From NCBI GenBank assembly GCA_001789445.1, contig MFZQ01000014.1, forward strand, positions 11,557-75,556: a DNA stretch of 64,000 bases, in the 5' to 3' direction. The notes beneath the pieces are model-generated. The model did not search any database. It was not told the origin of the DNA and worked only from the letters and a program-made list of their open reading frames with translations. Shown in pieces: positions 4,790-64,000 of this stretch (positions within the stretch are counted from its first letter, which is position 1; each line of letters begins with the position of its first letter). Made by a program: the position numbers and the translations under genes. The stretch comes from Candidatus Roizmanbacteria bacterium RIFCSPHIGHO2_02_FULL_40_13b (lineage in GTDB: Bacteria; Patescibacteriota; Microgenomatia; UBA1406; HO2-37-13b).

Positions 4790-5599
4790 ATGTTTTACAA
4801 CCGAAGAAGCACGAGTCGAAGAAGCACCATTCAGGCACCGCGAGCACCGATGGTACCGCTCGCACTACTACTCTTGCTCGTTTTGATCATCCTAGGCAAT
4901 GCCTGGTGGTCACCGACGACGGAGGCCCTTTCGGCACAACCGACAGCAGTTGTAGACGCTCCTGTCCAGATTTCGACAGTGAGAGGACTTGCAACCGCCA
5001 CACCGGAACCACCGATTCACATCGCGTGGTTATCACACACGCTCGACCCGTTCCTCTGGAAACTCGCCAACGCCTGCAATAGGTGGGGCGTGGATCCAAG
5101 ACTGTGTGCCATTGTTGCACTTGTGGAGTCCGGGGGAAACCCGTACGCCGTGAGTGAAAGTGGCGCATATGGGCTGATGCAGATCATGCCAGCAACGGGC
5201 TCGCTCGTCGCTACAAGTCTCGATACCCCAGTGGATATCTACGTCATCGACGACAACGTCAATGCCGGAGCGTTCCTTCTTGGAGACGAGCTTGGCTACT
5301 TTGGATTCCTGCAGAGTGCAGATCCAACCTGGCGATGGAGCGTCATGCGTGCAGCAGCTGCCTTCAACGGTAGCCGCAAGTATGCAGACGAGCTGATCGA
5401 CTACGAGACGCTCAAGGTAGGTGGCAATTGCGCCCTCTACTATCCAGAGATCTTTGACCAGCAAATGCATCGGTATTCCTGCTGGGTAGGCGGCCTCTGG
5501 GACGACATCGACGAGAAGGAAAGCGACACGCTTAACTACTGGCTTGCCAGTGGAGGTCAACGACTGATCGACGATGCCGTAGCCGCAGCACAGCGGTAA
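4790..5599 (+). CDS. Membrane-anchored lytic transglycosylase (SLT domain) on a GC-rich island
   Basis: SLT catalytic motif [25 protein letters not shown], an N-terminal hydrophobic anchor, and local GC near 58% against roughly 35% in the flanks. Confidence 0.7.
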
Positions 5600-5731
5600 A
5601 GCACAAGGGCCAGGAGGCACACAGACGGATGTCAGCGTGATCCTTCCTTCCCCCTTTTTGCCCCAAGCGTTCTCGCGCCCTCGAGACTGTACTATCCGTT
5701 TTCCAACCCTTTTGCTATAATATTTTTATAC

Positions 5732-14703: not shown

Positions 14704-14752
14704 CTTCACACCGAGATCCTTCACCGCCAGCCGGCGGTTCAGGATGACAGAG
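14704..14752. repeat. GC-rich intergenic repeat unit (TTCACACCGAGATCCTTCAC...GTTCAGGATGACAGAG); the inverted copy is at 36411-36446
   Basis: 36411-36446 is the reverse complement of this element, differing by one substitution and loss of the central CCGCCAGCCGGCGG hairpin. Confidence 0.6.
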
Positions 14753-21800: not shown

Positions 21801-21866
21801 AAAAATCACCCCCTTTATTAAGTGTAATTAATAGTCGTGGAATATACAATATGATGAGTATAGCAG

Positions 21867-22027
21867 ATGGGAGAGGTTAAGAGGAGGTGATGGGGAGATA
21901 GGGTGGGGCAGAGGAGAGGAAGAGATGAGAAAAACAGAGAGGGAGACTTCTGCTTTTTTCCCATCCTCCTTTCTCCACTCCTCTCATCCCCCCTATCTCC
22001 CTATCCTCTCCTCCCCTCCTCTCTCCC
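21867..22027. repeat. Polypurine arm / polypyrimidine arm hairpin element (copy A) immediately upstream of a TATAAT box and murJ
   Basis: An 86 nt GA-rich arm (21867-21952), then ttctgc, then a CT-rich arm (21955-22027). The arms are imperfect reverse complements (GGGGAGATAGGG / CCCTATCTCCC). A 32-mer ATCTCCCTATCCTCTCCTCCCCTCCTCTCTCC is shared with copy B with one mismatch. Confidence 0.6.
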
Positions 22028-22047
22028 AAATGATATAATCAAACATA

Positions 22048-32321: not shown

Positions 32322-32358
32322 TTGACAAATATTAGCAGATGGGTTAAACTATTGCTAA
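32322..32358 (+). promoter_or_regulatory. hrcA promoter region with a degenerate CIRCE-like inverted repeat (TTAGCA-N15-TGCTAA)
   Basis: TTGACA at 32322-32327, TTAGCAgat-N9-tatTGCTAA at 32332-32358 (CIRCE consensus TTAGCACTC-N9-GAGTGCTAA), and TAAACT as a -10 candidate. Confidence 0.45.
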
Positions 32359-32398
32359 TTCCTTCGATTCCGCCCCTGGCGGGACTCAGGATACATAT

Positions 32399-36383: not shown

Positions 36384-36454
36384 ACACGCCTGAATCATGA
36401 TATAATATCGTGTCATCCTGAACGGAGTGAAGGATCTCGGTGTGAAACAACATT

Positions 36455-38382: not shown

Positions 38383-38979
38383 ATGTCTTCAAAACAAAAA
38401 CTAAGTTTTGGAATTGTAACTTCAGTTTTTCTCGTTTTGATTATCTCCATCTTTTTCTCATTTTTTCAAGAAAGTAAACAGAAAAAGATACATGAAGGAA
38501 CAGTAAAAAGTATCTCTGTAGGGGAGGGTTTCAAACCCTCCCAACGGCCCCAAATCAATCAGACATTCCTCGTCACTCGAATCATTGATGGCGATACATT
38601 CGAAATACAAACGAGACAAAAAGTGAGACTCATTGGAATTGATACTCCAGAACTTAATACATCGACTAAAAAAGTTCCCGGTTGTTTTGGTATTCAAGCG
38701 AAAGAGAAATTAAGTGAACTCATTTTTAATAAACAAGTAAGGCTCATGAAAGATATTTCAGAAACAGACAGATATGGGAGACTTTTGCGATATGTGTATT
38801 TTGGAGAAAACTTTATAAATCAGGATCTCATCGAACAAGGTTTTGCCCTAGCCAGTACTTTTCCACCTGATGTGAAGTATAAAGAGGTTTTTTTGAAAGC
38901 ACAAACTGAGGCGAGAGAGAATATGAGAGGATTATGGAAAGAGTGTTATCTGAATAGATTCCCGCCTTCGCGGGAATGA
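38383..38979 (+). CDS. Thermonuclease (staphylococcal nuclease, SNase-like), membrane-anchored
   Basis: VTRIIDGDTF...VRLIGIDTPE and RYGRLLRYVY motifs with an N-terminal TM. Start taken at MSSKQK (38383), directly after the previous stop. Confidence 0.8.
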   Translation: MSSKQKLSFGIVTSVFLVLIISIFFSFFQESKQKKIHEGTVKSISVGEGFKPSQRPQINQTFLVTRIIDGDTFEIQTRQKVRLIGIDTPELNTSTKKVPGCFGIQAKEKLSELIFNKQVRLMKDISETDRYGRLLRYVYFGENFINQDLIEQGFALASTFPPDVKYKEVFLKAQTEARENMRGLWKECYLNRFPPSRE

Positions 38980-39076
38980 CATATTATTTCCAGATGATAC
39001 GCTTATTTCGAGTATCACTGGGATTACACGTACATTGAGGGCCCCTTTGATACGAGAAATAACGTATCGAGGGAAA

Positions 39077-39137
39077 TTGAGATCCTGAAACCCGTCTTCG
39101 CAGGGCTACGCCGAGGCGAGCAAGTTCGGGATGACGG
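39077..39137. repeat. GC-rich intergenic repeat unit (GATCCTGAAAC...AAGTTCGGGATGACGG) related to 62268-62292
   Basis: It shares GATCC(C/T)GAAAC at the 5' end and AGTTCGGGATGACGG at the 3' end with the 62 kb copy. It lies between the convergent nuc and typA genes. Confidence 0.55.
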
Positions 39138-40998: not shown

Positions 40999-41025
40999 GT
41001 TTGGTCCACCTTTTGTGGACCAAAC
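40999..41025. repeat. Perfect 11 bp stem hairpin GTTTGGTCCAC-cttt-GTGGACCAAAC
   Basis: Read from the sequence. It lies between the typA start and repeat copy B. Confidence 0.5.
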
Positions 41026-41148
41026 GGAGAGGAGAGGATGGGGGGGATTGGGAGATAGGGAGAATCCTCCCCTCTGTTTTTTTCTCCTCCTCATCTCCTC
41101 CGCCACACCCCATCTCCCTATCTTCTCCTCCCCTCCTCTCTCCTCTTC
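41026..41148. repeat. Polypurine/polypyrimidine hairpin element (copy B) upstream of a TATAAT box and the ZIP transporter gene
   Basis: GA-rich arm 41026-41063 and CT-rich arm 41068-41148, sharing ATCTCCCTATCtTCTCCTCCCCTCCTCTCTCC with copy A. Followed by gcTATAATc. Confidence 0.6.
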
Positions 41149-41246
41149 CCATGCTATAATCACACAGTGCATAAACAACTAACCATCGTCTGTGGATGCG
41201 TTGTACCACTTGACTTATTGCAAATCATTTGCAATAATACCAATGC

Positions 41247-42098: not shown

Positions 42099-42350
42099 TT
42101 ATTTATACACAACTCCTCGATGTCCAACAGAAATGATATTAACTATTTTATCTTTCTCGTTAACTATATAAATTATACGAAAAGGACCTACTTTACTTGA
42201 AAATTTTCCTATTAATTCTCTAGTCAATGGTTTCCAGTAAAAGGGATCCTCTTTTAATTCTCGAATAATGAGTGAAATTACAGATTCGAATCGTTTGGGT
42301 ATTAATTTTAACTGTCGTTTTGCTTTAGGAGCAATAATAACAGTAAACAT
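42099..42350 (-). CDS. Type II toxin, RelE/ParE family
   Basis: 83 aa, C-terminus FRIIYIVNEKDKIVNIISVGHRGVVYK, and a position downstream of a Phd/YefM gene with overlapping stop and start. Confidence 0.7.
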   Translation of the reverse strand: MFTVIIAPKAKRQLKLIPKRFESVISLIIRELKEDPFYWKPLTRELIGKFSSKVGPFRIIYIVNEKDKIVNIISVGHRGVVYK

Positions 42351-42622
42351 TATTCAAAACCCAACTCTTTTTTAACGTCTTCCCAATTTTCACCTTTGCC
42401 TTCACGTATTTCTTTCTCTCCTTGACGAATAGCTTTCATGAGCGCTTTATCAGCTAAAATCTCATTTGTCTCTTTAATAGATTCATATTCTGAAAATGGA
42501 ATGATTATCGCGGCAGGAGCACCATTTACCGTAATAATATATTCGTGAAGTTTTTTGTGAGCGTTATCAACCAATTTCGTTAAATTCCCCCGTGCTTGTG
42601 TGATCGACAATGTTTGTGTCAT
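42350..42622 (-). CDS. Type II antitoxin, Phd/YefM family
   Basis: LSITQARGNLTKLVD...APAAIIIPFSEYESIKETNEIL. The ORF extends to 42658; probable start at MTQTLS. Confidence 0.65.
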   Translation of the reverse strand: MTQTLSITQARGNLTKLVDNAHKKLHEYIITVNGAPAAIIIPFSEYESIKETNEILADKALMKAIRQGEKEIREGKGENWEDVKKELGFE

Positions 42623-42687
42623 ACTGTATATGGTACATAATTCTGTACAGAATGTCAAGAAGTTAAAAAGTAATCTATCTTATTCGC

Positions 42688-53734: not shown

Positions 53735-56047
53735 TCATAAATAAGCTGCCTTAGCATATAAATCTTTCTGGAACGCAAAAAAAATTGATCGGATATCCTC
53801 TACACTTCCAAGTGATTGTTCGGCATTAGCAATGGCATGATATTTTATATTTAATAATATTGGCAACATTTCTTCATCAAGTTCTTCGACCCCTTTTTCT
53901 TCGTATTTTGACAGCACAAAATCTAAAAATTCTTTTTGTTTTTCATCGAGTCCCTCAAAAATTTTGTCCTTTGATTGTGCTATTCTTTGTGTTCTTGAAA
54001 TCGGCTGTGTTAAGAATGAAATATATGTTAAAACGTCAAATAAATCACTTTGCTCAGCATCGATCAATTTTTGCAATGTTTCTAATTCATCTTTACCATA
54101 ACCTCTTTCAGCAATCTTTTCTAAGAATGCTTTGCGTGTGGTTGGGTTTGACCAAATTTTTCTTAACTCTTCCTCATTCTTAAAAAAGTCTGGCAAGACA
54201 CCGAACATATTATCCATAAACTCATTTACAGAGATTGGCTTTCCATCAGGACCCCAAAATGATGTAGAAATCATATGTTTTATCTCACGTTCTTTACCAT
54301 CTCGTAATTTTATTTTTAATTTTTCCTTTGGTTCCACTTGATCTTTGTCACCAATAACTAAACTCTGATCATTAACTGGCTCCGGATATTTAATTACCTT
54401 TGGCTCGCTCTCTGCTGTATCATCTACGGGTTCCCCGTCCCATTCCGAATCAGAAAAATGATGATAAGCATCAACAAAATCAAAAATTGTAAAATATTCT
54501 TTACCATCAAAAAGTCTCGTCCCACGACCAATAATTTGTTTAAACTCAATTATAGAATTGACTGGCCGCATCAAAACAATATTGCGAATATTACGTGCAT
54601 CAACACCGGTTGAAAGCTTTTGTGATGTGGTTAAAATAGTGGGAATTGTTTTTTCATTATCTTGAAACTCTCGTAAAAATTGCTCACCTCGAAATCCATC
54701 GTTTGCTGTCACTCGCACACAATAATTTGGATCTCTACTGTCTTTCATTTGATTTACCAAATCACGAATTGCCAAAGCGTGGTCTTGTGTTGCACAAAAT
54801 ATAATCGTTTCTTCGTTTTGATTTATTTCGTCCAAGATTATGCGAACTCGTTTAGCTTCGCGTTCTTTAATAAAAATAATTTTATTAAAGTCGGGTTCTT
54901 CATAAATTTTGCCTTCCTCTACTTCTCCTTCAATTATTTGATCATCAGAAACGTACATATAGTCATCAAGAGTCGTTTTGATTCTTTTGACTTTAAATGG
55001 TGTTAAAAACCCATCGTTTACGCCTTCCTTGAGTGAATAAATATAGACTGGTTCGCCAAAATATTTATACGTATCTACGTTATCTTTTCGCTTTGGTGTA
55101 GCTGTTAATCCTAGTTGAACAGCTGGCGAAAAATATTCCAAAATCCCCCGCCAATTACTTTCATCGTTAGCGCCACCTCGATGACATTCGTCGATAATAA
55201 TAAAATCAAAAAAATCGGATGGGTAATCACCAAAATAAGGAGTACCGTTTGAACCACTCATAAACGTTTGGAAGATTGTAAAAAAAATACTTCCGCTCAT
55301 TGGCACAGCGCCTCTTCTTCTAATATCCAATGGATTGATTCGTACAAGCGCGTCTTCGTCAAAAGCAGAAAAAGCATTAAATGCTTGATCAGCTAATATA
55401 TTTCTGTCTGCCAAAAATAAAATTCTTGGCCGACGTGTACTATCACGTTTTAAATTCCATCGGGTCTGAAACAGTTTCCAAGCAATCTGAAAAGCTACGG
55501 CCGTTTTTCCGGTTCCAGTTGCCATAGTCAAAAGAATTCTGTTTTTTTCTTCAGCTACCGCGTTTAAAACATTATTAATGGCAATTTCTTGATAATAGCG
55601 GCTGCCATATTCGCCCTCATTTGGCACACGGGCAAATTTTTCTTTCCATTCATTTTGATCCGAATAGGTCTTGTTCCACAGCTCATCTGGAGTGGGAAAA
55701 TTGACAACTGGTCCTTCATGTCCAGTTTTCATGGACATTTCATAAATCTCACGGCCATTAGATGAATACGTAAAATCAATATGCATTTTTCCGGCATATG
55801 CTTTAGCCTGAGCAACTCCCTCACCACATTCTTGATCTTCAGCTTTAGCTTCAATCACACCAATTTTGTGATTTTTATACACAAAAATATAGTCAGCTAT
55901 CTCTGGCTTGCTCCTAGTTCCACCAATTTGGATTTTACCATCAGTAATCCGAAATTCTCGAAGAACTTTTGATCCCTCGACAACTCCCCACCCGCTCGCT
56001 TTAAGCTTTGGATCAATAAGTTCTGCCCGTGTTTCCGCTTCGTTCAT
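53735..56047 (-). CDS. hsdR: Type I restriction enzyme R subunit HsdR
   Basis: N-terminus MNEAETRAELIDPKLKASGW, Walker A MATGTGKT, DECH box and helicase motifs. 770 aa. Confidence 0.9.
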   Translation of the reverse strand: MNEAETRAELIDPKLKASGWGVVEGSKVLREFRITDGKIQIGGTRSKPEIADYIFVYKNHKIGVIEAKAEDQECGEGVAQAKAYAGKMHIDFTYSSNGREIYEMSMKTGHEGPVVNFPTPDELWNKTYSDQNEWKEKFARVPNEGEYGSRYYQEIAINNVLNAVAEEKNRILLTMATGTGKTAVAFQIAWKLFQTRWNLKRDSTRRPRILFLADRNILADQAFNAFSAFDEDALVRINPLDIRRRGAVPMSGSIFFTIFQTFMSGSNGTPYFGDYPSDFFDFIIIDECHRGGANDESNWRGILEYFSPAVQLGLTATPKRKDNVDTYKYFGEPVYIYSLKEGVNDGFLTPFKVKRIKTTLDDYMYVSDDQIIEGEVEEGKIYEEPDFNKIIFIKEREAKRVRIILDEINQNEETIIFCATQDHALAIRDLVNQMKDSRDPNYCVRVTANDGFRGEQFLREFQDNEKTIPTILTTSQKLSTGVDARNIRNIVLMRPVNSIIEFKQIIGRGTRLFDGKEYFTIFDFVDAYHHFSDSEWDGEPVDDTAESEPKVIKYPEPVNDQSLVIGDKDQVEPKEKLKIKLRDGKEREIKHMISTSFWGPDGKPISVNEFMDNMFGVLPDFFKNEEELRKIWSNPTTRKAFLEKIAERGYGKDELETLQKLIDAEQSDLFDVLTYISFLTQPISRTQRIAQSKDKIFEGLDEKQKEFLDFVLSKYEEKGVEELDEEMLPILLNIKYHAIANAEQSLGSVEDIRSIFFAFQKDLYAKAAYL

Positions 56048-56059
56048 ACAATAATTTTA

Positions 56060-56590
56060 CTATGTAAAGAGCTTTTTAACCTCTTTTGCCACTGAAAAAA
56101 CAAATTCAAGATCTGCTTTTGTGTAATCTTTAATCTCTTTATGTATGCCAATATGCTGTTCGTTTCTCAATTGTCTAACTCTATCGATTTTTTTAAATAA
56201 TTCATCTTCTATGCAGTCTTTAGCTTTCAAAAAATTATTAATATTGCCCAGATTAAGTTTTTCAAATTTTATTTTTTCAGGATTTTTCATGTAATCTCCA
56301 GCTATAATTTGATGACTATCAGTAACTTCGTGTAATACTATTTTATTTGTGAAATCCCATTTGTAGATTACCAAATCTTCTTTTGTATATTTCTTCTCCA
56401 ATAGATATAAAAGCAATGCCTCAATAATTGATGCTGTGTAAATAATTACAGTTTTTCTAAAACTGCTTTTGGCTAAGTCACTATAACTCTTTGATTCTGA
56501 AAATGGAATTAGATCAAGAATATGATTAAAGGCAATATCAAGATTTTCTCTCAAAACTAAGTCGCTAACAAAGGGGAAGTTACTAGCCAT
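56060..56590 (-). CDS. Hypothetical protein inserted between hsdS and hsdR; possible HEPN-like (R-x3-6-H) motif
   Basis: 176 aa, alpha-helical, C-terminal RVRQLRNEQHIG. No confident family. Confidence 0.3.
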   Translation of the reverse strand: MASNFPFVSDLVLRENLDIAFNHILDLIPFSESKSYSDLAKSSFRKTVIIYTASIIEALLLYLLEKKYTKEDLVIYKWDFTNKIVLHEVTDSHQIIAGDYMKNPEKIKFEKLNLGNINNFLKAKDCIEDELFKKIDRVRQLRNEQHIGIHKEIKDYTKADLEFVFSVAKEVKKLFT

Positions 56591-56594
56591 AGTC

Positions 56595-56789
56595 TCAAGG
56601 CTTGAGCATCTCAGAAAGAGATCTGTATCCTTTTTGTTTTAAATAATTACCAAGCTTCATATTTGATTTTACTCCCAAATCAATGCCATATTTTTTTTCA
56701 ATTGTTCCGACTTTTGTATCAAACCTTTTTGGAGTGAACTGACCCTTGTTATTCTTAGCTCGCGAGGTCTTTGTTTGTTTTGTATTCAT
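56595..56789 (-). CDS. Small basic protein (64 aa)
   Basis: Lys-rich with pI well above 10. Lies in the R-M operon between hsdS and the HEPN-like gene. Confidence 0.3.
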   Translation of the reverse strand: MNTKQTKTSRAKNNKGQFTPKRFDTKVGTIEKKYGIDLGVKSNMKLGNYLKQKGYRSLSEMLKP

Positions 56790-56822
56790 AGATTTATTAT
56801 ACCAGCTTTAAAGTAAACTCCA

Positions 56823-58001
56823 TCACAATTCTCCGGCAAACGCCTTCCTGAGCACAGATTTCTTCATCTCCTCCAAATCAGCCAATTTTTGTTTATAAAT
56901 AACTTCCAGTTTTTTAGTCTCAGCCGAAAGCGCATCAAGTTTGATAACAATAGATTTTTGTTCGGAAATATTAGGCATTGGAATAACAAAATCTAAAACC
57001 AAATTCATATTCGCTCTTGGCATTCTGGCTCCTGTCCATGTAGCATTTATTTGTTTAACTGTTTCTTTGGAAATAAGCCAATAAAATAAAAAATTTCTGT
57101 AAAGGTTTTTATTAGGCTTGATAGGGAAAATCTCTGTTGAACAATGACCTTCAAAGTTTGGTAATAGCACTTTATTGAGATATGGTCTTAGTCTTCCATA
57201 TAAAACATGCTCACCACTAAAATGGAAAGTATTGCTTTTTACTTTCAATGGATTCAACGAGCCAAGAAATTTACCAGTATTAGATTCTATATCTTCAAGT
57301 CCAACATACGGCAGATTTGTTTTTTTGTACGGAGTTTTATCATATTTACACACCTCATCCAAGGTATTCTCCTCCCAATCTTTCCCCGGATTAGCAAAAA
57401 CACTCTGCAAATATGATTCAAAAAGCTCTTTGGAGTTTTGAAGATTTTTTTCAGTGTTTTCTTTCGCCTTCGCCACTTTCCCAAAAACCTCATCTAGTTT
57501 TTTTACAATTCGTGTTTGCTCACTGAATGATGGCAACGGTGCCTCAATATCTTTATATGCCTGCATATTTAGATTCCTTATACCAGTTGAGTGACTTTGC
57601 ATTCTCTCTGTTATGCCAGATATATAAGAATAAAATAGAAACTTATGTAGGAAATTAAAATCCAACTCACTTTGATCTTTAATTCTGATCACAGATGTAA
57701 AATTACTAAAAGAAAACTCGCCATCTTTTTTATTAAAAATAATGACACGTCCAACTGGCTGTTTCGGTCCACCCCCTGATTTCTCCAGAACAATATCGCC
57801 ATACATCAGTTTACGATTTGCAAATTGCTTTTTCTCAACATCTAAATAAGCTACGTCAGAGTCGTCTAAACGGCCATCTTTAGTAATGTTTGTATTACGA
57901 ATCACACCAATATTTATATATGGTGGTTCTTTTCCTTTCCATAGGCCGTTATAGAAATCACAGGTCTCACTAAGTTTTTTGGTTTGCCAATTATTTTTCA
58001 T
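56823..58001 (-). CDS. hsdS: Type I R-M specificity subunit HsdS
   Basis: Two target-recognition domains separated and followed by conserved coiled regions. 392 aa. Flanked by hsdM and hsdR. Confidence 0.85.
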   Translation of the reverse strand: MKNNWQTKKLSETCDFYNGLWKGKEPPYINIGVIRNTNITKDGRLDDSDVAYLDVEKKQFANRKLMYGDIVLEKSGGGPKQPVGRVIIFNKKDGEFSFSNFTSVIRIKDQSELDFNFLHKFLFYSYISGITERMQSHSTGIRNLNMQAYKDIEAPLPSFSEQTRIVKKLDEVFGKVAKAKENTEKNLQNSKELFESYLQSVFANPGKDWEENTLDEVCKYDKTPYKKTNLPYVGLEDIESNTGKFLGSLNPLKVKSNTFHFSGEHVLYGRLRPYLNKVLLPNFEGHCSTEIFPIKPNKNLYRNFLFYWLISKETVKQINATWTGARMPRANMNLVLDFVIPMPNISEQKSIVIKLDALSAETKKLEVIYKQKLADLEEMKKSVLRKAFAGEL

Positions 58002-59439
58002 AATATGAACGCAACAATTTTATGGAGTCAACTAACTTAGTATTAAAATCTTTTCCTCTGTTCGACGGATAATGAATACAGTTTCTTATGTATGTTGGCA
58101 GAGTTATCTTCTTATCTCCTTTTTTTAATGGGTACTCTTGTTCGAGTTTTTTTACCTGCACAAAATAACCATTATCAAATTCTTTTATCCCAACAGCGTC
58201 TTTATTATTTTCATCGCCATAAACCGCTCTGAGATGATCGTATAATTCGTTATGATAATCAGTGCTAGAAATTTCAAAAACATCGTACGTCACACTTGCA
58301 TATGTTGATGCTTTTTTTTCAAATTGTTTTTTTTCTGTTTTTTCTTTCTTTGTTTCCTTGTTAGGATTTTTAAATATTTTGTAGTTTCTGCTTAAGTCGT
58401 CCTTATCTATCATGTAGTTAGAATGTGTAGCAAAAAAAACAATATTATTTCTTCCACTCCGAGTAATCTTCACCAACTCTTTTAACAAGTCTTCTTGAGC
58501 TTGCGGATGAAGATGGGTTTCTGGTTCATCGAGTAACAAGATTGAGTTAGAGAGTTCGTTGTTTCTATTTTGCGCAGATACTGTTAAAAGAAAAGACACG
58601 AACTGCTTAAATCCATCGCTTCTCTGATCAGCAGTTTTTGCCTTTCCTTTCGTACCGATATCGTGTACATGAAAATTTATTAAACCATCTGATATGTCAA
58701 ATGTTACTTTGATCGGGTGTTTCGGCCAGGCTGTATTAATATGTTCGCTTACTTTATCACTCAGTTCAGTTTTCAACTGTTCGCGCTCGGTAGATTCTTT
58801 AGCTAGGTCTACTCTTGCCTTAATGGCATCCTGCCCAATAATCCCAGCAAGTGCAAAACAATTTTTTAATGGCACTGAGATATCATCTGGTGTACTTGCA
58901 AATTGATCTAAATCTATTGGTTGGGAAATTAAATATCGATCCTCAGCTGTCCAAAAAATAGTTTTATGGGCTTTGTTTAAAATTGATTCCTTTATAAGCT
59001 CTTGAGCTGCAGATTTATTTTCATAATCATCCGTAATATTAATAATTTCTAATTTAATTTCAGACTGGCTTGGATTTGCATAATTAAAACCAATAACAAG
59101 TTTGATGTCTTTTATGTCAACGTCTTTTGTATCTATTGGTGTTTCTTGGGATTTTAAAAGCTCTTTATATTGATTTGCTTCATCCTCTTCTAAAGAGTAT
59201 GAATATTCAATCTCTATTGACTTCAATCTATCTTTAAAATCGTTCTTTAGTGGTAAAGGATTACCTTTTTCATCTTTAAGACCATCTTTTAATGCCAATG
59301 CTTTTAGAATGGTTGACTTGCCCGCCTCATTGACACCGATCAAACCATAAGTAAAAGTATTATCACTAAGAGGTATAATATCAAAAGATATTTCTTCTAT
59401 ACTTCTGTAATTCTTTATTTGTATTGACTTTAATATCAT
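57991..59439 (-). CDS. ABC/SMC-like AAA ATPase (AAA_21/OLD-PrrC-like N-domain) with an uncharacterised C-terminal domain, inserted between hsdM and hsdS
   Basis: Walker A GVNEAGKST, Walker B/D-loop LLLDEPETHLHP, H-loop FFATHS. The ~130 aa C-terminus has RNCIHYPSN and YDHLRAVYGDE. Confidence 0.7.
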   Translation of the reverse strand: MILKSIQIKNYRSIEEISFDIIPLSDNTFTYGLIGVNEAGKSTILKALALKDGLKDEKGNPLPLKNDFKDRLKSIEIEYSYSLEEDEANQYKELLKSQETPIDTKDVDIKDIKLVIGFNYANPSQSEIKLEIINITDDYENKSAAQELIKESILNKAHKTIFWTAEDRYLISQPIDLDQFASTPDDISVPLKNCFALAGIIGQDAIKARVDLAKESTEREQLKTELSDKVSEHINTAWPKHPIKVTFDISDGLINFHVHDIGTKGKAKTADQRSDGFKQFVSFLLTVSAQNRNNELSNSILLLDEPETHLHPQAQEDLLKELVKITRSGRNNIVFFATHSNYMIDKDDLSRNYKIFKNPNKETKKEKTEKKQFEKKASTYASVTYDVFEISSTDYHNELYDHLRAVYGDENNKDAVGIKEFDNGYFVQVKKLEQEYPLKKGDKKITLPTYIRNCIHYPSNRGKDFNTKLVDSIKLLRSYYEK

Positions 59440-59442
59440 ATT

Positions 59443-60894
59443 TTATAAATATTTACTGATGCTATTTAATATCTGTCCACTTTTCTGATCCAAGCTTCTC
59501 ATTTCTTCCAAAATCTCCTTTGGATTGCGTAATGGTGCCGAGCCAATTTTGTTTGGATTTTTTACCGATAAGTCAAATGTTTTTTGATCGATATTTTTAA
59601 CATCAATGCTCCACGAGTTTTCGCTATCTGCTTTTGTTTTTTGTAGTTCGACAAATTCTGCCAAGTCCGCTTCGCTTAATGGGTTGCCCTTACCGAGGTT
59701 GCGGGTGAGGTTGAGTTGGTAAAACCAAACTTTTTTTGTTGATGCGCCTTTTTCAAAAAATAATACAACGGTTTTAACCCCTGCTCCGGCAAATACACCA
59801 CCTGGGAGATCAAGCACTGTGTGTAGATTGCAACTTTCTAGAAGAAGTTTCCGCAGCGAAACAGAGGCATTGTCGGTATTAGAAAGAAACGTATTTTTGA
59901 TAACAATACCAGCCTTACCACCTGCTTTTAGAATTTTGATGAAGTGTTGAAGAAAAAGAAACGCTGTTTCGCCTGTTTTAATTGGGAAGTTTTGTTGAAT
60001 TTCTCGTCCAATTCCAGCGCCGAAAGGTGGATTGGCCAAGACTATGTCATATCGATCTTTTTCTTGAATATCATTGATATTTTCAGCCAATGTATTCATG
60101 TGCCGAATATTTGGCGCTTCAATACCGTGCAAAATCATATTCATAATGCCTATGATATATGCGAGTGATTTTATTTCTTTACCATAGAAAGTTTTGTTTT
60201 GCAGTATTGATATCTGACTTGATGAAAGCTTTGACTGATTTTGAGTGAGGTAGTTAAATGATTCAACCAAAAAGCCTGCACTTCCACACGCTCCATCGTA
60301 AATTGTCTCACTAATTTTCGGCGCAACTACTTTTACAATCGTTTTAATAAGTGGACGTGGTGTGTAATACTCGCCACCATTTCGGCCCGCGTTGCCCATG
60401 TTTTTTATTTTGGCTTCGTAAAGATGTGAAAGTTCGTGTTTCTCTTCATATAGTCGGAAGTGCATGCCGTCAACGATATTTAAAATCTCCCGCAATTTAT
60501 ACCCACTGGAAATTTTATTTTTGAGTTCATGAAAAATTTCGCCAATCTTATATTCAATTGTATTTGGATCTTCCGCTCTAAATTTCTTGAGATATGGAAA
60601 CAGATTATTATTTACAAAATCTTTTAGATCGTCACCATCAAGCGCTTTATTATGATCGAGTTTGCCTTCGTCGTTCTTTGGACACGCCCATATATTCCAC
60701 TGGTATTCCGGAGACAAAATATATTTATATTCCTTCCCAGCTAGTGCCGCTTCCGTTCGTTTTGTTTCCTCCAGACCATCAAGATATTTCAAAAAGAGAA
60801 CCCATGAAGTTTGTTCCACATAATCAAGCTCTGTTCCACAACCGGAATCGGTATGAAGAATATTGTCAATGTTTTTGAATGATTGCTCGAACAT
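59443..60894 (-). CDS. hsdM: Type I R-M N6-adenine DNA methyltransferase HsdM
   Basis: VLANPPFG catalytic motif, an AdoMet-binding motif, and a typical HsdM N-domain. Confidence 0.9.
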   Translation of the reverse strand: MFEQSFKNIDNILHTDSGCGTELDYVEQTSWVLFLKYLDGLEETKRTEAALAGKEYKYILSPEYQWNIWACPKNDEGKLDHNKALDGDDLKDFVNNNLFPYLKKFRAEDPNTIEYKIGEIFHELKNKISSGYKLREILNIVDGMHFRLYEEKHELSHLYEAKIKNMGNAGRNGGEYYTPRPLIKTIVKVVAPKISETIYDGACGSAGFLVESFNYLTQNQSKLSSSQISILQNKTFYGKEIKSLAYIIGIMNMILHGIEAPNIRHMNTLAENINDIQEKDRYDIVLANPPFGAGIGREIQQNFPIKTGETAFLFLQHFIKILKAGGKAGIVIKNTFLSNTDNASVSLRKLLLESCNLHTVLDLPGGVFAGAGVKTVVLFFEKGASTKKVWFYQLNLTRNLGKGNPLSEADLAEFVELQKTKADSENSWSIDVKNIDQKTFDLSVKNPNKIGSAPLRNPKEILEEMRSLDQKSGQILNSISKYL

Positions 60895-60936
60895 AGGTTA
60901 GTTTCTAAATATGGCTCCATTCTACCACTCCATAGC

Positions 60937-61191
60937 CTATTTATACACTCCTTGTCTGTGGCCGATTTTGATAACTAAAATAAGCAATTGATGTTGATAA
61001 ATTTGATAGATGATTCGGTAAGGCCACATACGAAAACTATATGATCCTTTATATTCTCCTTCTAATTTTTTACCAATAAGTGGATTTATCGATAATGAAA
61101 TGAATGCGGAAAGAATTCTGTTGTATTCTTTTTTTGGAATTTTTTTAAGTTTTTTTTCGACTGTTGGTTTTAGTTTTACTTGGTATGCCAT
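60937..61191 (-). CDS. Type II toxin, RelE/ParE family
   Basis: 84 aa; YRIIYQI...IGHRQGVYK is RelE-like. Confidence 0.7.
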   Translation of the reverse strand: MAYQVKLKPTVEKKLKKIPKKEYNRILSAFISLSINPLIGKKLEGEYKGSYSFRMWPYRIIYQIYQHQLLILVIKIGHRQGVYK

Positions 61192-61504
61192 ATTTCTTTG
61201 CGACTTTATCAGAAACTAAAAAGCCCTCTTGTTTCAGTAGGGCATCTAGTGTGACCCAATTTTTATACTCTCCTGATTCAAACGCTTTATGTGCTTCTTC
61301 AATATCTTTTGAAAGATCAGGAAATTGTTCCATTACCTCGAATGTCTCTTGCCATGATTCAAACTCTTCAGCTGATATAAGTACCGCTTTGGGCCGACCT
61401 TTTTCAGTAAAAGTATAGTGCACTCCCGGCTGTTGTACCGCTTCGGCAATATCAAAAATATTCTTTCGCGCTTCTGTTATTGGAATAGTTGTTTTTGTGT
61501 TCAT
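61145..61504 (-). CDS. Type II antitoxin, Phd/YefM family
   Basis: IPITEARKNIFDIAE...PKAVLISAEEFESWQETFEVM. Its 3' end overlaps the toxin gene by 47 nt. Confidence 0.6.
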   Translation of the reverse strand: MNTKTTIPITEARKNIFDIAEAVQQPGVHYTFTEKGRPKAVLISAEEFESWQETFEVMEQFPDLSKDIEEAHKAFESGEYKNWVTLDALLKQEGFLVSDKVAKKYGIPSKTKTNSRKKT

Positions 61505-62217: not shown

Positions 62218-62260
62218 GCTCTATTCTACCACTCGTCCTTCCCAAATGCGCTGGGATGTG

Positions 62261-62389
62261 CGTGGATCCCGAAACGAGTTCGGGATGACGGCGGGCAAGG
62301 CACGTTCAGGATGACCCCACTTCGTCACGTTCATGTAAACCGAACGTGACTACGAGGGGCAAGCAGAGGGTGGGATCAGGATGACAGAG
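62261..62389. repeat. Cluster of three GC-rich repeat units with core TTC(A/G)GGATGAC, plus two perfect hairpins
   Basis: AGTTCGGGATGACGG (62277), CGTTCAGGATGACC (62304), GATCAGGATGACAGAG (62374). Hairpins ATCCCGAAacgagTTCGGGAT and GTCACGTTCatgtaaaccGAACGTGAC. Confidence 0.55.
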
Positions 62390-63206
62390 AGGGCTTAAGT
62401 TTCTTGATGGATGGATTTCCCAGGAGTGATTTCATTTGTGAAATTGCACTCTGATTGAGCTGAATTAATCTTTCGGGCTGAGAAATTCCTTTTTTAATGA
62501 GTTCTGCGTTTATTCCTTCCAGATTTGCGAGTACTACCAGTTTTGTTACATCTTCATAATCGCGAATATTTCCATCTTTTTTAGGATTTTGATCTCGCCA
62601 ATCCTTAGCAGTCCTACCAAATAACGCACTATTTAATACATCGGCTTCTGTTGCATAGACGACAGTGATAGATTGTTTCGAAATGTTTGGTGGGATCAAG
62701 TGTATCATAATCGCATCGGTATGGATTCGATAATTAATTTTAGTGAGCTGTCTTTTTATATCCCAACCCAAAGCCAATCGTTCATTTTCTTCTGATTTAA
62801 GTCGTTGAAATTCCTTGATTAAATACAACTTAAATTCTGGGCTAATCCAACTGGCAAATTCAAAGGCAATGTCGCGGTGCGCAAAAGTACCTCCATATCT
62901 ACCAGCCGACGACCGAATACCTATCGCATTTGTTTTTTTAATCCACTTTGAAGATGATACTATAAAGCCATTTGAGCCGGCTTCGTTTTTAATGTTATTG
63001 AATTCCATAACATTAAAATTTGGATTATGCACCTGTTCCCAAGTGCCCATAAATTGAATTGTATACTTCGTAGATAGCCAATTCACAATTACTATACCCG
63101 TTGCTTCACGATCTTTGAATTTGGCCATATCAGTCAAAGAAATATATTCTTCCTCATTGTCTTTCACGACTGCTATTTGTAGACCTTGAGCAATAATTTT
63201 TTTCAC
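62376..63206 (-). CDS. KilA-N domain protein (phage/virus-type DNA-binding)
   Basis: N-terminus ISLTDMAKF and GGTFAHRDIAFEFASWISPEFKLYLIKEF, which is the KilA-N/APSES-like signature. Confidence 0.6.
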   Translation of the reverse strand: MKKIIAQGLQIAVVKDNEEEYISLTDMAKFKDREATGIVIVNWLSTKYTIQFMGTWEQVHNPNFNVMEFNNIKNEAGSNGFIVSSSKWIKKTNAIGIRSSAGRYGGTFAHRDIAFEFASWISPEFKLYLIKEFQRLKSEENERLALGWDIKRQLTKINYRIHTDAIMIHLIPPNISKQSITVVYATEADVLNSALFGRTAKDWRDQNPKKDGNIRDYEDVTKLVVLANLEGINAELIKKGISQPERLIQLNQSAISQMKSLLGNPSIKKLKPSLSS

Positions 63207-63334
63207 GACATTATTCTACCACGTTTAGACTCTGTAAATGGGCTGGAATGAGGGGAACACCTTTCACTTTACAACCTAAAAAGTGTTTTAAATTAAGGTA
63301 GCTTTCATGTATAATAGCCCTTACTAAAGCAATA

Positions 63335-63406
63335 TCCCCTGTAGCTCAACGGTAGAGCAGGATCCTGTTAAGATCAAGGTTCGTGGTTCGAATCCACGCG
63401 GGGGAG
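63335..63406 (+). tRNA. tRNA-Asn (anticodon GTT)
   Basis: Acceptor TCCCCTG/CGGGGGA, D-arm GCTC-AACGGTA-GAGC, anticodon loop CTGTTAA, T-arm CGTGG-TTCGAAT-CCACG. Closely matches E. coli tRNA-Asn. Confidence 0.85.
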
Positions 63407-63928
63407 CCTAGATGGATGAGTGTTCAATTCCACAAGGTATGAAAAGGGGAATCTGTGCTCTACAACAACCTCTTTGTTAGTCAAAAAAAGGTTCGAAGAT
63501 ACCTTCCTCAAAAAAAGATATTGTGGTAGCTCTTTTGCCTTCAAAAAATACTTTTCAGCGTTCTGACAGAGCAAAAAGAAGTTCGAAGCTTTTTTCTGCC
63601 AATCAAGGCTATTTTTTTCCAGCTTATTTTGTGTCCCCAAAAGCTGAATCCTGTCATTTTCTTTTTTCTGTTTGTATTCCTCATATACTTCATCAGGACT
63701 CTTGTCCCCTATGGCTGTTATTTTCCCAGCAATCCGCATCTCAAAGAGATTCTTTAGCTCGGTATCAATTTGACCAATACGTTTACTTATATTGACCAAT
63801 AATTTATTCTGATCCTCCTTCAATGCAGAATACTCCCGATCCATCTCCTCAAGTAGAAATTCAGAAAGATCCATGCCTATGTCGATAGGTGCAACTACCT
63901 TGTCAGCAAACTCCTGTACAAGGTCCAA
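63374..63928 (-). CDS. Hypothetical coiled-coil protein; the 3' end of the ORF runs antisense through tRNA-Asn
   Basis: ORF only. The last ~11 codons are the reverse complement of the tRNA, so the real stop and extent are doubtful. Confidence 0.2.
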   Translation of the reverse strand: MDLVQEFADKVVAPIDIGMDLSEFLLEEMDREYSALKEDQNKLLVNISKRIGQIDTELKNLFEMRIAGKITAIGDKSPDEVYEEYKQKKENDRIQLLGTQNKLEKNSLDWQKKASNFFLLCQNAEKYFLKAKELPQYLFLRKVSSNLFLTNKEVVVEHRFPFSYLVELNTHPSRLPRVDSNHEP

Positions 63929-64000
63929 TCGATTGATGCTAGGCTGTGTGCAAGTGTGGCGACCTCGTGATTTTGTGCAATGATAGAGGCAATGTTCAGT

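Follow-up and report, generated by a model that had tools for sequence, protein, structure and literature searches.

The window analyzed here, a stretch of 64,000 nucleotides from Candidatus Roizmanbacteria bacterium RIFCSPHIGHO2_02_FULL_40_13b (contig MFZQ01000014.1, positions 11,557 to 75,556), contains short GC-rich repeats which we regard, with a probability of about 0.85, as CGTC-tagged repetitive extragenic palindromes (REPs), alias Ssn-related motifs (SRMs; SRM/NTS-like hairpins). This family has already been described twice, as the CGTC-tagged REPs (Di Nocera, De Gregorio & Rocco 2013, BMC Genomics 14:522; PMC3733652) and as the targets of the single-stranded DNA (ssDNA) nuclease Ssn (Chenal et al. 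2025, Nat Commun 16:2388; PMC11893778). What is added here is incremental in every respect: a host from the candidate phyla radiation (CPR), two stem variants that are missed by the published pattern and have Ssn-like genes at their flanks in CPR and other phyla, and viral contigs among the carriers.

CGTC-tagged REPs are recognized by the tag CGTC (or TGTC/CCTC), by a stem of 8-9 bp whose positions 1 and 2 are complementary as A-T and T-A, by a loop of 4-5 nt and by a short unpaired tail with the consensus CCA (PMC3733652). They usually form head-to-head dimers between unidirectional or convergent open reading frames (ORFs), were reported in 5 phyla, and make up a superfamily that takes in Neisseria dRS3 (CGTC-1) and Rickettsia RPE-4 and RPE-6 (PMC3733652). 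Apparently they have no dedicated transposase, no REP-associated tyrosine transposase (RAYT) being flanked by CGTC units, and many of them were argued to be transcribed (PMC3733652). About half of the Neisseria dRS3 copies correspond to the oriented 28-nt motif NTS, CGTCATTCCCGCGMAVGCGGGAATCYRG, and NTS-like SRMs flank homologues of the 94-aa GIY-YIG protein SsnA (CDD cd10448) across phyla (PMC11893778).

Repeat copies in the window

A previous reading of the DNA, made from the letters alone (the sequence-only reading), had described a family of GC-rich repeats with the core TTC(A/G)GGATGAC(A/G)G. This family is real and lies where it had been placed: TTCRGGATGACRG, with up to one mismatch, has 5 matches in the window against 0.17 expected, and YCRGGATGAC has 6 against 0.29, a number reached by none of 100 dinucleotide-preserving shuffles. 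Against a window G+C of ~38%, the copies are local islands of 62-70%. The motif and covariance-model search that the reading had suggested was run on the window and on loci outside it, and its results are far above chance. The covariance model (R1) was built from 125 distinct units of relatives elsewhere and was run on the window with filters off, where it recovers four full copies (c2, c4a, c1 and c5) with E-values from 1e-6 to 0.03. Altogether, the window contains five full copies, one of which (c3) carries a 35-nt loop insert, and two partial copies.

Read on the strand opposite to the core given above, all copies are built alike: (C/T)GTC as the tag, eight stem positions, a loop, the second arm of the stem, and a tail whose first base is C. 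The first two stem pairs of each unit are A-T and T-A, the loop has 4-5 nt or is expanded, and the tail is CTC, CCA or CTA. The tag is CGTC in c3 and c4a, TGTC in c1, c2, c5 and c4c, and GGTC in c4b; GTC before the palindrome and C after it are found in all five full copies. The stem is ATCCCGAA in c4a and c3, ATTCCCGC in c5, and ATCCT-GA-A in c1 and c2, where two of the eight positions are G·A oppositions. Class i denotes units with a perfect 8-bp ATCCYGAA stem and a 5-nt loop (c4a, and c3 with its 35-nt insert). Class ii comprises the elements GTC, ATCCT, GA, AC, GNA, GT, GA, AGGAT and CTC, in this order, with a folding plan of five stem pairs, then two G·A oppositions in tandem, two further pairs and a GNA triloop. 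Loops and tails vary accordingly, from 5 nt and CCA (c4a), 4 nt and CTA (c5), or a 5-nt loop region and CTC (c2), to the expanded loops of c1 and c3. Taken feature by feature, c4a fits the published definition of a CGTC-tagged REP (PMC3733652). The copies, the genes at their sides and a neighboring hairpin are as follows.

14704..14752, reverse strand: copy c1, class ii, cTGTC-ATCCT-GA-AC[CGCCGGCTGGCG]GT-GA-AGGAT-CTC, then GGTGTGAAG; tandem G·A and a longer apical stem; R1 match at 14711-14750, 29.7 bits, E 5.6e-5
~14.7 kb: uvrD-like and femAB-like genes, flanking c1
36410..36448, forward strand: copy c2, class ii 27-mer, gTGTC-ATCCT-GA-AC-GGA-GT-GA-AGGAT-CTC, then GGTGTGAAA; in the dnaJ-efp gap; R1 match at 36410-36440, 36.1 bits, E 1.6e-6
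~36.4 kb: dnaJ and efp, flanking c2, with a gap of 71 nt
38953..38982, reverse strand: copy c5, dRS3/NTS-like, aTGTC-ATTCCCGC-GAAG-GCGGGAAT-CTA; R1 18.4 bits, E 0.03; also found by the strict hairpin search
39079..39137, reverse strand: copy c3, class i, cCGTC-ATCCCGAA-(35 nt)-TTCAGGAT-CTC, with a GC-rich loop insert; assigned from pattern matches
~39 kb: thermonuclease (SNase) gene and bipA/typA, flanking c5 and c3
62261..62291, reverse strand: copy c4a, canonical class i, cCGTC-ATCCCGAA-CTCGT-TTCGGGAT-CCA; R1 35.2 bits, E 2.7e-6
62292..62318, reverse strand: c4b, partial copy, gGGTC-ATCCTGAAC-GTGCCTTGCCCGCC, with tag and 5' arm only; core match at 62306-62315; no full R1 match
62324..62350, no strand assigned: perfect 9-bp hairpin, GTCACGTTC-N9-GAACGTGAC, between the partial copies; part of the mosaic cluster, not a family member by R1
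62370..62389, reverse strand: c4c, partial and internally deleted copy, cTGTC-ATCCTGA//TCCCAC; core match; R1 11.8 bits, E 1.1
~62.3 kb: KilA-N gene and radC, flanking the c4 cluster

Compared with the sequence-only reading, the main loci stand and one further copy, c5, which had been missed, is added to them. On the other hand, the three tandem units assigned to 62277-62389 resolve into one complete copy (62261-62291), one half copy (~62292-62318) and one internally deleted copy (62370-62387), and the weak copy proposed near 32384 is not a member of the family, as R1 finds nothing there at E<10; the letters at that place form a CCGCC-CCT-GGCGG hairpin and the ribosome-binding site of hrcA. 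The copies at 14704 and 36411, taken as reverse complements of each other over 36 nt, do share two identical blocks of 20 and 13 nt (the extension GGTGTGAAG of c1 is also present in c2), but not as a continuous 36-nt match, since a 12-versus-3-nt indel lies at the hairpin tip. The description of the copies as rich in hairpins holds for three of them, whose predicted DNA folds are -10.6 kcal/mol (c1, 14711-14752; z -4.1), -8.9 kcal/mol (c5, 38953-38984; z -4.0) and -8.8 kcal/mol (c4a, 62259-62293; z -3.2), but not for c2 and c3, which are taken up below. R1 does not recover c3 in the window, and its outer stem is not its predicted minimum-energy fold; loop inserts resembling that of c3 (CTTCG..CTACGC..) are also found in loci L078, L111 and L174. 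No Rfam family was found at gathering threshold in the window, nor at E up to 1 in five repeat-rich loci, and a full-text literature search with the core sequences retrieved only primers.

All window copies lie in gene gaps or on the 3' ends of ORFs, and each of them follows an ORF end, the relation to gene ends being one that the reading had proposed to check. Three loci are unidirectional gaps, one is a convergent gap with two copies (c5 and c3), and none is divergent. The flanking ORFs are ordinary housekeeping genes by ORF calls and Pfam. Copy c1 sits 12 nt past the stop codon of the uvrD-like gene (14764), upstream of the femAB-like gene, and c3 begins 5 nt past the stop of bipA/typA (39142), in the convergent gap. 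Head-to-head dimers are absent from the window: c5 and c3, separated by 97 nt, point the same way, and the units of the c4 cluster follow one another head-to-tail. That all copies are intergenic is nearly right, but two of them overlap ORF 3' ends, with the stop codons of the SNase gene (38977-38979) and of the KilA-N gene (62376-62378) inside them. In the SNase ORF, the eight C-terminal residues (NRFPPSRE) and the TGA come from c5, within 38957-38979, and this C-terminal extension is absent from the nine closest SNase homologues aligned; c4c provides the codons L-S-S and the TGA stop (62378-62376) of the KilA-N ORF 62376..63206, within 62376-62387. A copy landing on an ORF end would rewrite it, because both orientations of the unit carry TGA.

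The sequence of c2 is found unchanged in the strain contigs L001-L003. In metagenome scaffold L005, a run of N at 931-941 (window ~36407-36420) falls exactly over the tag half of c2, where the repeat has apparently disrupted the assembly of short reads or the scaffolding. Immediately 5' of the same copy there is a perfect extended -10 box, TGATATAAT, at 36398-36406, without a match to a -35 box; if this box is used, the c2 hairpin would be the 5' end of the efp mRNA and not the 3' untranslated region (3'-UTR) of dnaJ.

The family outside the window

An anchored scan with the pattern GAGATCCYKMA-N5-35-TTCRGGATGAC retrieved 71 stretches of IMG/VR viral contigs, several of them with 3-5 copies, and at least 119 stretches of species-representative genomes from more than 15 phyla; by a rough calculation, a few matches would be expected by chance among the viral contigs and a few tens among the genomes. 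Among the matches listed, Patescibacteria hold at least 13 loci, and the other hosts include Bacteroidota, Ignavibacteriota, Omnitrophota, Chloroflexota, Acidobacteriota, Verrucomicrobiota, Planctomycetota, Alpha-, Gamma- and Deltaproteobacteria, Campylobacterota, Spirochaetota, Firmicutes, Elusimicrobiota, Calditrichota and Nitrospirota, among others. Most matches are 27-mers such as GAGATCCTGAAACAAGTTCAGGATGAC, and their flanks contain sister units with other stems (ATGCTGAA, ATTCTGAA, ATTGCGGA, ATTTCGA and more), often as inverted doublets or regular arrays (L093, L095, L111); dimers are frequent in these related loci. On plasmids of Sphingobium, Novosphingobium and Sphingomonas, a 25-mer of the class i consensus recurs exactly; sphingomonads are hosts named in both earlier descriptions (PMC3733652; PMC11893778). 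A strict hairpin search over 1.5 Mb of loci found 204 class i units against 4 in shuffled sequence and 198 of class ii against 0, and R1 found 206 units in 710 kb of loci.

The aligned R1 matches retain the stem while its letters change (pair 8-41: CG 95, UA 21, GC 18; pair 10-39: UA 103, CG 31), with a covariation score of 0.271 against 0.099 in shuffled alignments, reached by none of 500 shuffles, although a hairpin model served to select and to align the units and the pairing in these counts is therefore inflated. The AT stem start is invariant in 136 distinct family members. The first base past the palindrome, which the searches did not require, is C in ~94% of the units; the commonest tail is CTC, CCA being a minority. 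Tandem G·A pairs and GNA triloops occur only on the tag strand of class ii (GNA in 74 of 94 seven-base apices), and in class i the first and fourth loop positions change together, being C..G or T..A (CTTG, TTTA), a known geometry of mini-loops with two residues. Since the G·A pairs and GNA triloops keep to the tag strand, and given this mini-loop geometry, we infer that the unit functions as single-stranded DNA, in the form of its tag strand.

With respect to genes, convergent and unidirectional gaps are favored over divergent ones (68 convergent versus 23 divergent), in line with the published preference, and orientation relative to transcription is unbiased (68 sense versus 79 antisense; 34 versus 53 for single copies), counts that come from a crude ORF caller with 91 unreliable "inside ORF" cases, especially in GC-rich loci. 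The sense bias of the window (three of three unidirectional gaps) is thus not a property of the family. Several units are nested in the loops of terminator-like hairpins (L018, L040, L071, L132) or in the loops of other units (L030, L172, L191), which suggests hairpin loops as a preferred landing site. The comparison of homologous loci with and without a copy gave alignments too divergent for insertion boundaries to be placed, and in the site-level comparison of orthologous spacers the relatives were too distant (EF-P at most 50% identical; the closest SNase 70%) and had essentially no copies.

Small GIY-YIG genes and the Ssn/SRM system

The biochemistry of the system is known from SsnA, which binds the motif as ssDNA only and on one strand only, neither double-stranded DNA nor RNA being bound, and cuts a few nucleotides 5' of the tag (PMC11893778). 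Binding hinges on the C directly past the palindrome and cleavage on the three bases that precede the palindrome, while the loop may be removed or extended; binding and cutting of ssDNA hairpins were demonstrated for the enzymes of Neisseria, N. elongata, N. wadsworthii and Wolbachia (PMC11893778). In N. meningitidis, SsnA lowers transformation by NTS-bearing DNA, the NTS-ssnA-NTS arrangement was likened by the authors to an insertion sequence, and a ssn homologue is present in 81% of the genomes with more than 200 SRMs (PMC11893778).

Our link to GIY-YIG genes was found independently of that work, by requiring copies on both sides of an ORF; an all-against-all BLAST of the flanking ORFs had as top clusters ABC ATPases and related phage genes, with no GIY-YIG link. 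Among the loci fetched with the pattern, an ORF of 94-100 aa lies between inverted copies, with the tags outward, in L111 (Lutibacter), L184 (Parcubacteria) and L192, and the same small ORF adjoins a copy in L102 (Vibrio) and L150 (Saccharibacteria). It consists of a single GIY-YIG domain (Pfam PF01541, E 1e-13 to 1e-18). In the reverse direction, flanking hairpins were found, by R1 or by eye, in six of the six neighborhoods fetched for diverse homologues of the L184 protein. The GIY-YIG loci of CPR bacteria (L184, L150, L220) carry the ATCCYGA type seen in the window, and in the Patescibacteria locus L220/L221 GTCATCCCGAATGCCGCTTCAGCGGCAGAGGGATCTC lies upstream of the GIY-YIG gene and its inverted partner downstream. 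The idea that the repeats are protein-binding modules was, in this sense, probably a good one, as related copies flank small GIY-YIG genes of predicted Ssn type.

Furthermore, the published strand specificity and mutagenesis (PMC11893778) agree with what is seen here, namely the restriction of G·A pairs and of GNA triloops to the tag strand, a GTC that does not vary, and a C past the stem in ~94% of the units. The likeness to SRM/NTS motifs extends to the same oriented hairpin with GTC before and C after the palindrome, to c5, which matches the published pattern, to the SRM-ssn-SRM arrangement around small single-domain GIY-YIG genes with the same stem types in other genomes, and to the tolerance of loop extensions. 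The differences are that the stems ATCCYGAA and ATCCT-GA-AC fall outside the published pattern and outside the stems tested with enzyme, that 72 kb of this genome hold no ssn gene, and that the published study does not treat CPR hosts or viral contigs (PMC11893778).

In a contig of Patescibacteria type (L222 959-1803, L223 3-799), an IS200/RAYT-like Y1_Tnp gene lies directly upstream of a Ssn-like GIY-YIG gene, which has a hairpin of SRM type downstream. The two hairpin-nuclease systems may interact.

Weighing the identification against alternatives

Several observations weigh against the identification of the window repeats as CGTC-tagged REPs/SRMs. No ssn homologue was found by tblastn in the 64-kb window, nor in the 8 kb past its right end (L216), and for the ATCCYGAA and tandem-G·A stems, binding and cleavage would be assigned from the likeness of their sequences to those of the tested motifs. 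The GIY-YIG proteins are putative members of cd10448, and their best PDB sequence match is weak (SLX1, E 0.004). The published SRM pattern, HGTCWYN(0-2)YYVSBRHN(0-5)WNVSBRGN(0-2)RNCYNB, matches only c5 (38954-38981) in the window, so that by this operational test c1, c2, c3 and c4a lie outside the SRMs; across the loci it recovers 4 of 456 units, and beside the 11 GIY-YIG genes examined it recovers no hairpin. The pattern was tuned to stems of the CCCGCG type and, because it misses the hairpins at all 11 GIY-YIG genes, we take it as a narrow search tool and not as a definition. Copies c2 (27 nt) and c3 are not predicted to fold well by nearest-neighbor rules (z ~0), and the inflation of the covariation counts mentioned above also has to be discounted. 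Finally, 20 loci of relatives (EF-P at most 50% identical; 150 kb in total) carry essentially no copies, and the family is accordingly patchy.

The window repeats share with the CGTC-tagged REPs the tag, the AT-first stem of eight positions, the loop of 4-5 nt, the short tail (CCA in c4a), the multi-copy occurrence in unidirectional or convergent gaps or at ORF ends, sometimes inside hairpins or palindromes, and the lack of a known RAYT partner. They differ in that the 2013 survey covered 5 phyla and no CPR genomes, in that the commonest tail here is CTC, and in the absence from the window of the typical head-to-head dimers, which are a tendency and not a requirement. The pipeline of that survey would not have scored class ii (c1, c2), because units with more than one stem mismatch were discarded (PMC3733652). 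The earlier label "REP/MITE-like" is correct in its first half, as the published definition of CGTC-tagged REPs applies, but not in its second, since neither terminal inverted repeats nor target duplications of a MITE (a transposable element of the miniature inverted-repeat kind) are present and the unit has 27 nt.

A primary role at the RNA level, by which the copies would be 3'-UTR stem-loops that end transcription or shield the upstream mRNA against 3' exonucleases, as some REPs of E. coli have been shown to do, appears improbable to us. Such a role would suit the position of each window copy past an ORF end, the tag strand being the mRNA sense in the three unidirectional gaps, as well as the gap preference of the family and the arguments for transcription of many CGTC-tagged REPs (PMC3733652). 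Nonetheless, no copy has a T tract, the terminator scan was negative at the copies, and the family shows no orientation bias even though the tandem G·A pairs and GNA loop are one-stranded, all of which also speaks against the conserved terminators considered in the sequence-only reading; SsnA, moreover, does not bind RNA (PMC11893778). An RNA effect may be a side effect rather than a rival, and hairpins at gene ends may still affect mRNA.

Classical GTAG-type REP/REPIN elements mobilized by a RAYT of HUH/Y1 type offer the same general look, with short intergenic palindromes, inverted doublets and, elsewhere in the family (L093, L095, L111), arrays like the bacterial interspersed mosaic elements (BIMEs) of E. 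coli. The parallel with GTAG REPs/REPINs and RAYT (TnpA-REP) includes a short hairpin with an unpaired tag recognized as ssDNA by a small nuclease, the gene of the nuclease between inverted copies, and doublets and arrays in both systems; the Y1_Tnp gene upstream of one Ssn-like gene (L222/L223) is a further point in its favor. We nevertheless hold this origin to be very unlikely. The unpaired tag here is GTC and not GT[AG]G, the enzyme fold is GIY-YIG and not HUH/Y1, and RAYT REPs are largely lineage-specific, whereas near-identical 27-mers of the present family cross phyla. As to the partner enzyme, the REP-associated tyrosine transposase that had been suggested does not appear, and the gene that recurs beside the copies is a GIY-YIG gene: neither the window nor 1.65 Mb of loci with repeats contain an ORF with the HUH...Y..NP/Q motifs, no Y1_Tnp was found in Pfam scans of most larger window ORFs and the precomputed Pfam calls for 26455-47018, and the published survey found no RAYT flanked by CGTC units (PMC3733652). 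Even less credit can be given to chance GC-rich palindromes or operators of a local transcription factor, a reading suggested by the shortness of the copies and their number (5-7 in 64 kb), as the enrichment over shuffles is too large, R1 E-values reach 1e-6, identical units occur in hundreds of unrelated genomes, and the copies lie downstream of genes and not in promoters.

Other features of the window

The host is a CPR bacterium, the closest named relatives of the window proteins being Microgenomates/Patescibacteria, and metagenomes of aquifer type hold contigs near-identical to the window. Besides the REP-like copies, a second and unrelated repeat family is found at 21862-22028 and 41022-41150, in the form of long purine-/pyrimidine-rich imperfect hairpins (GAGAGG... 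/ ...CCTCTC) that are 71-81% alike. They occupy the spacers of divergent genes, S20/MurJ and BipA/ZIP transporter, respectively, and each ends just before a TGnTATAAT box (TGATATAAT near 22030 and TGCTATAAT near 41155); the first folds with -41.6 kcal/mol (z -3.75), the second more weakly (z -1.2). A CIRCE-like operator, TTAGCAGAT-N9-TATTGCTAA, lies at 32332-32358, upstream of hrcA-grpE-dnaK-dnaJ, and adjoins and partly overlaps a likely promoter with a TTGACA box at 32322-32327. The small CCGCC/GGCGG hairpin near 32384, with the AGGA ribosome-binding site of hrcA, is separate from this operator.

A probable integrated element extends over window positions 62376-64000 and L216 1-9842. In it, a tRNA-Asn gene (63335-63408) shares sequence with the 3' end of a large serine recombinase gene, the latter continuing beyond the window edge, and MerR/excisionase-like, HTH_3 repressor-like and small hypothetical genes follow past the recombinase. 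KilA-N is the innermost gene of this probable element, and the c4 cluster lies at this edge, beside radC. A cluster of defense and addiction genes (53735-61504 and 42099-42658) comprises hsdR, hsdS and hsdM of a type I restriction-modification system, into which a gene for an AAA_15/AAA_21 ATPase is inserted, as well as two toxin-antitoxin pairs of Phd/YefM-ParE type. Lastly, a G+C-rich island at 4790-5700 (~45% versus 38%) covers a gene for a SLT-domain transglycosylase and its downstream spacer, and may be of foreign origin.

Proposed mechanism and significance

The window copies would be the same kind of site as the ssDNA hairpins of Ssn, to judge from their letters and their anatomy, and would have spread as short non-autonomous hairpins into the spacers at gene ends and into the loops of other hairpins. 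In a CPR cell, they could conceivably serve in the restriction of incoming ssDNA, as in Neisseria, be relics of SRM-ssn-SRM units that behaved like insertion sequences, or stand as incidental 3'-UTR hairpins. A more far-reaching reading holds that the Ssn/SRM system is considerably broader than published, including both stem variants (the perfect ATCCYGAA stem and the one with tandem sheared G·A pairs and a GNA triloop), each with small GIY-YIG genes at the same loci and with near-identical copies in more than 15 phyla among the matches listed, in CPR bacteria and in many viral contigs, and that it comprises an ssDNA gate in CPR cells and insertion into loops; we put this forward tentatively and, as a whole, consider it rather doubtful.

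The basic picture in the literature is unchanged by the present findings, which suggest that the published SRM definition under-counts the family. In the annotation of CPR genomes, the hairpins account for islands of high G+C, for breaks in assemblies and for unusual C-terminal extensions or stop codons. If the broader reading is true, the repeats may spread by insertion into hairpin loops, those of terminators included, and the Ssn/SRM pair could gate incoming DNA, or the ssDNA intermediates of phages and plasmids, at the ssDNA level in CPR cells, for which a dependence on DNA uptake is assumed. The findings further point to pairs of enzyme and site with new stem specificities in CPR bacteria and phage-like contigs, and these would be candidate reagents for site-specific cleavage of ssDNA.

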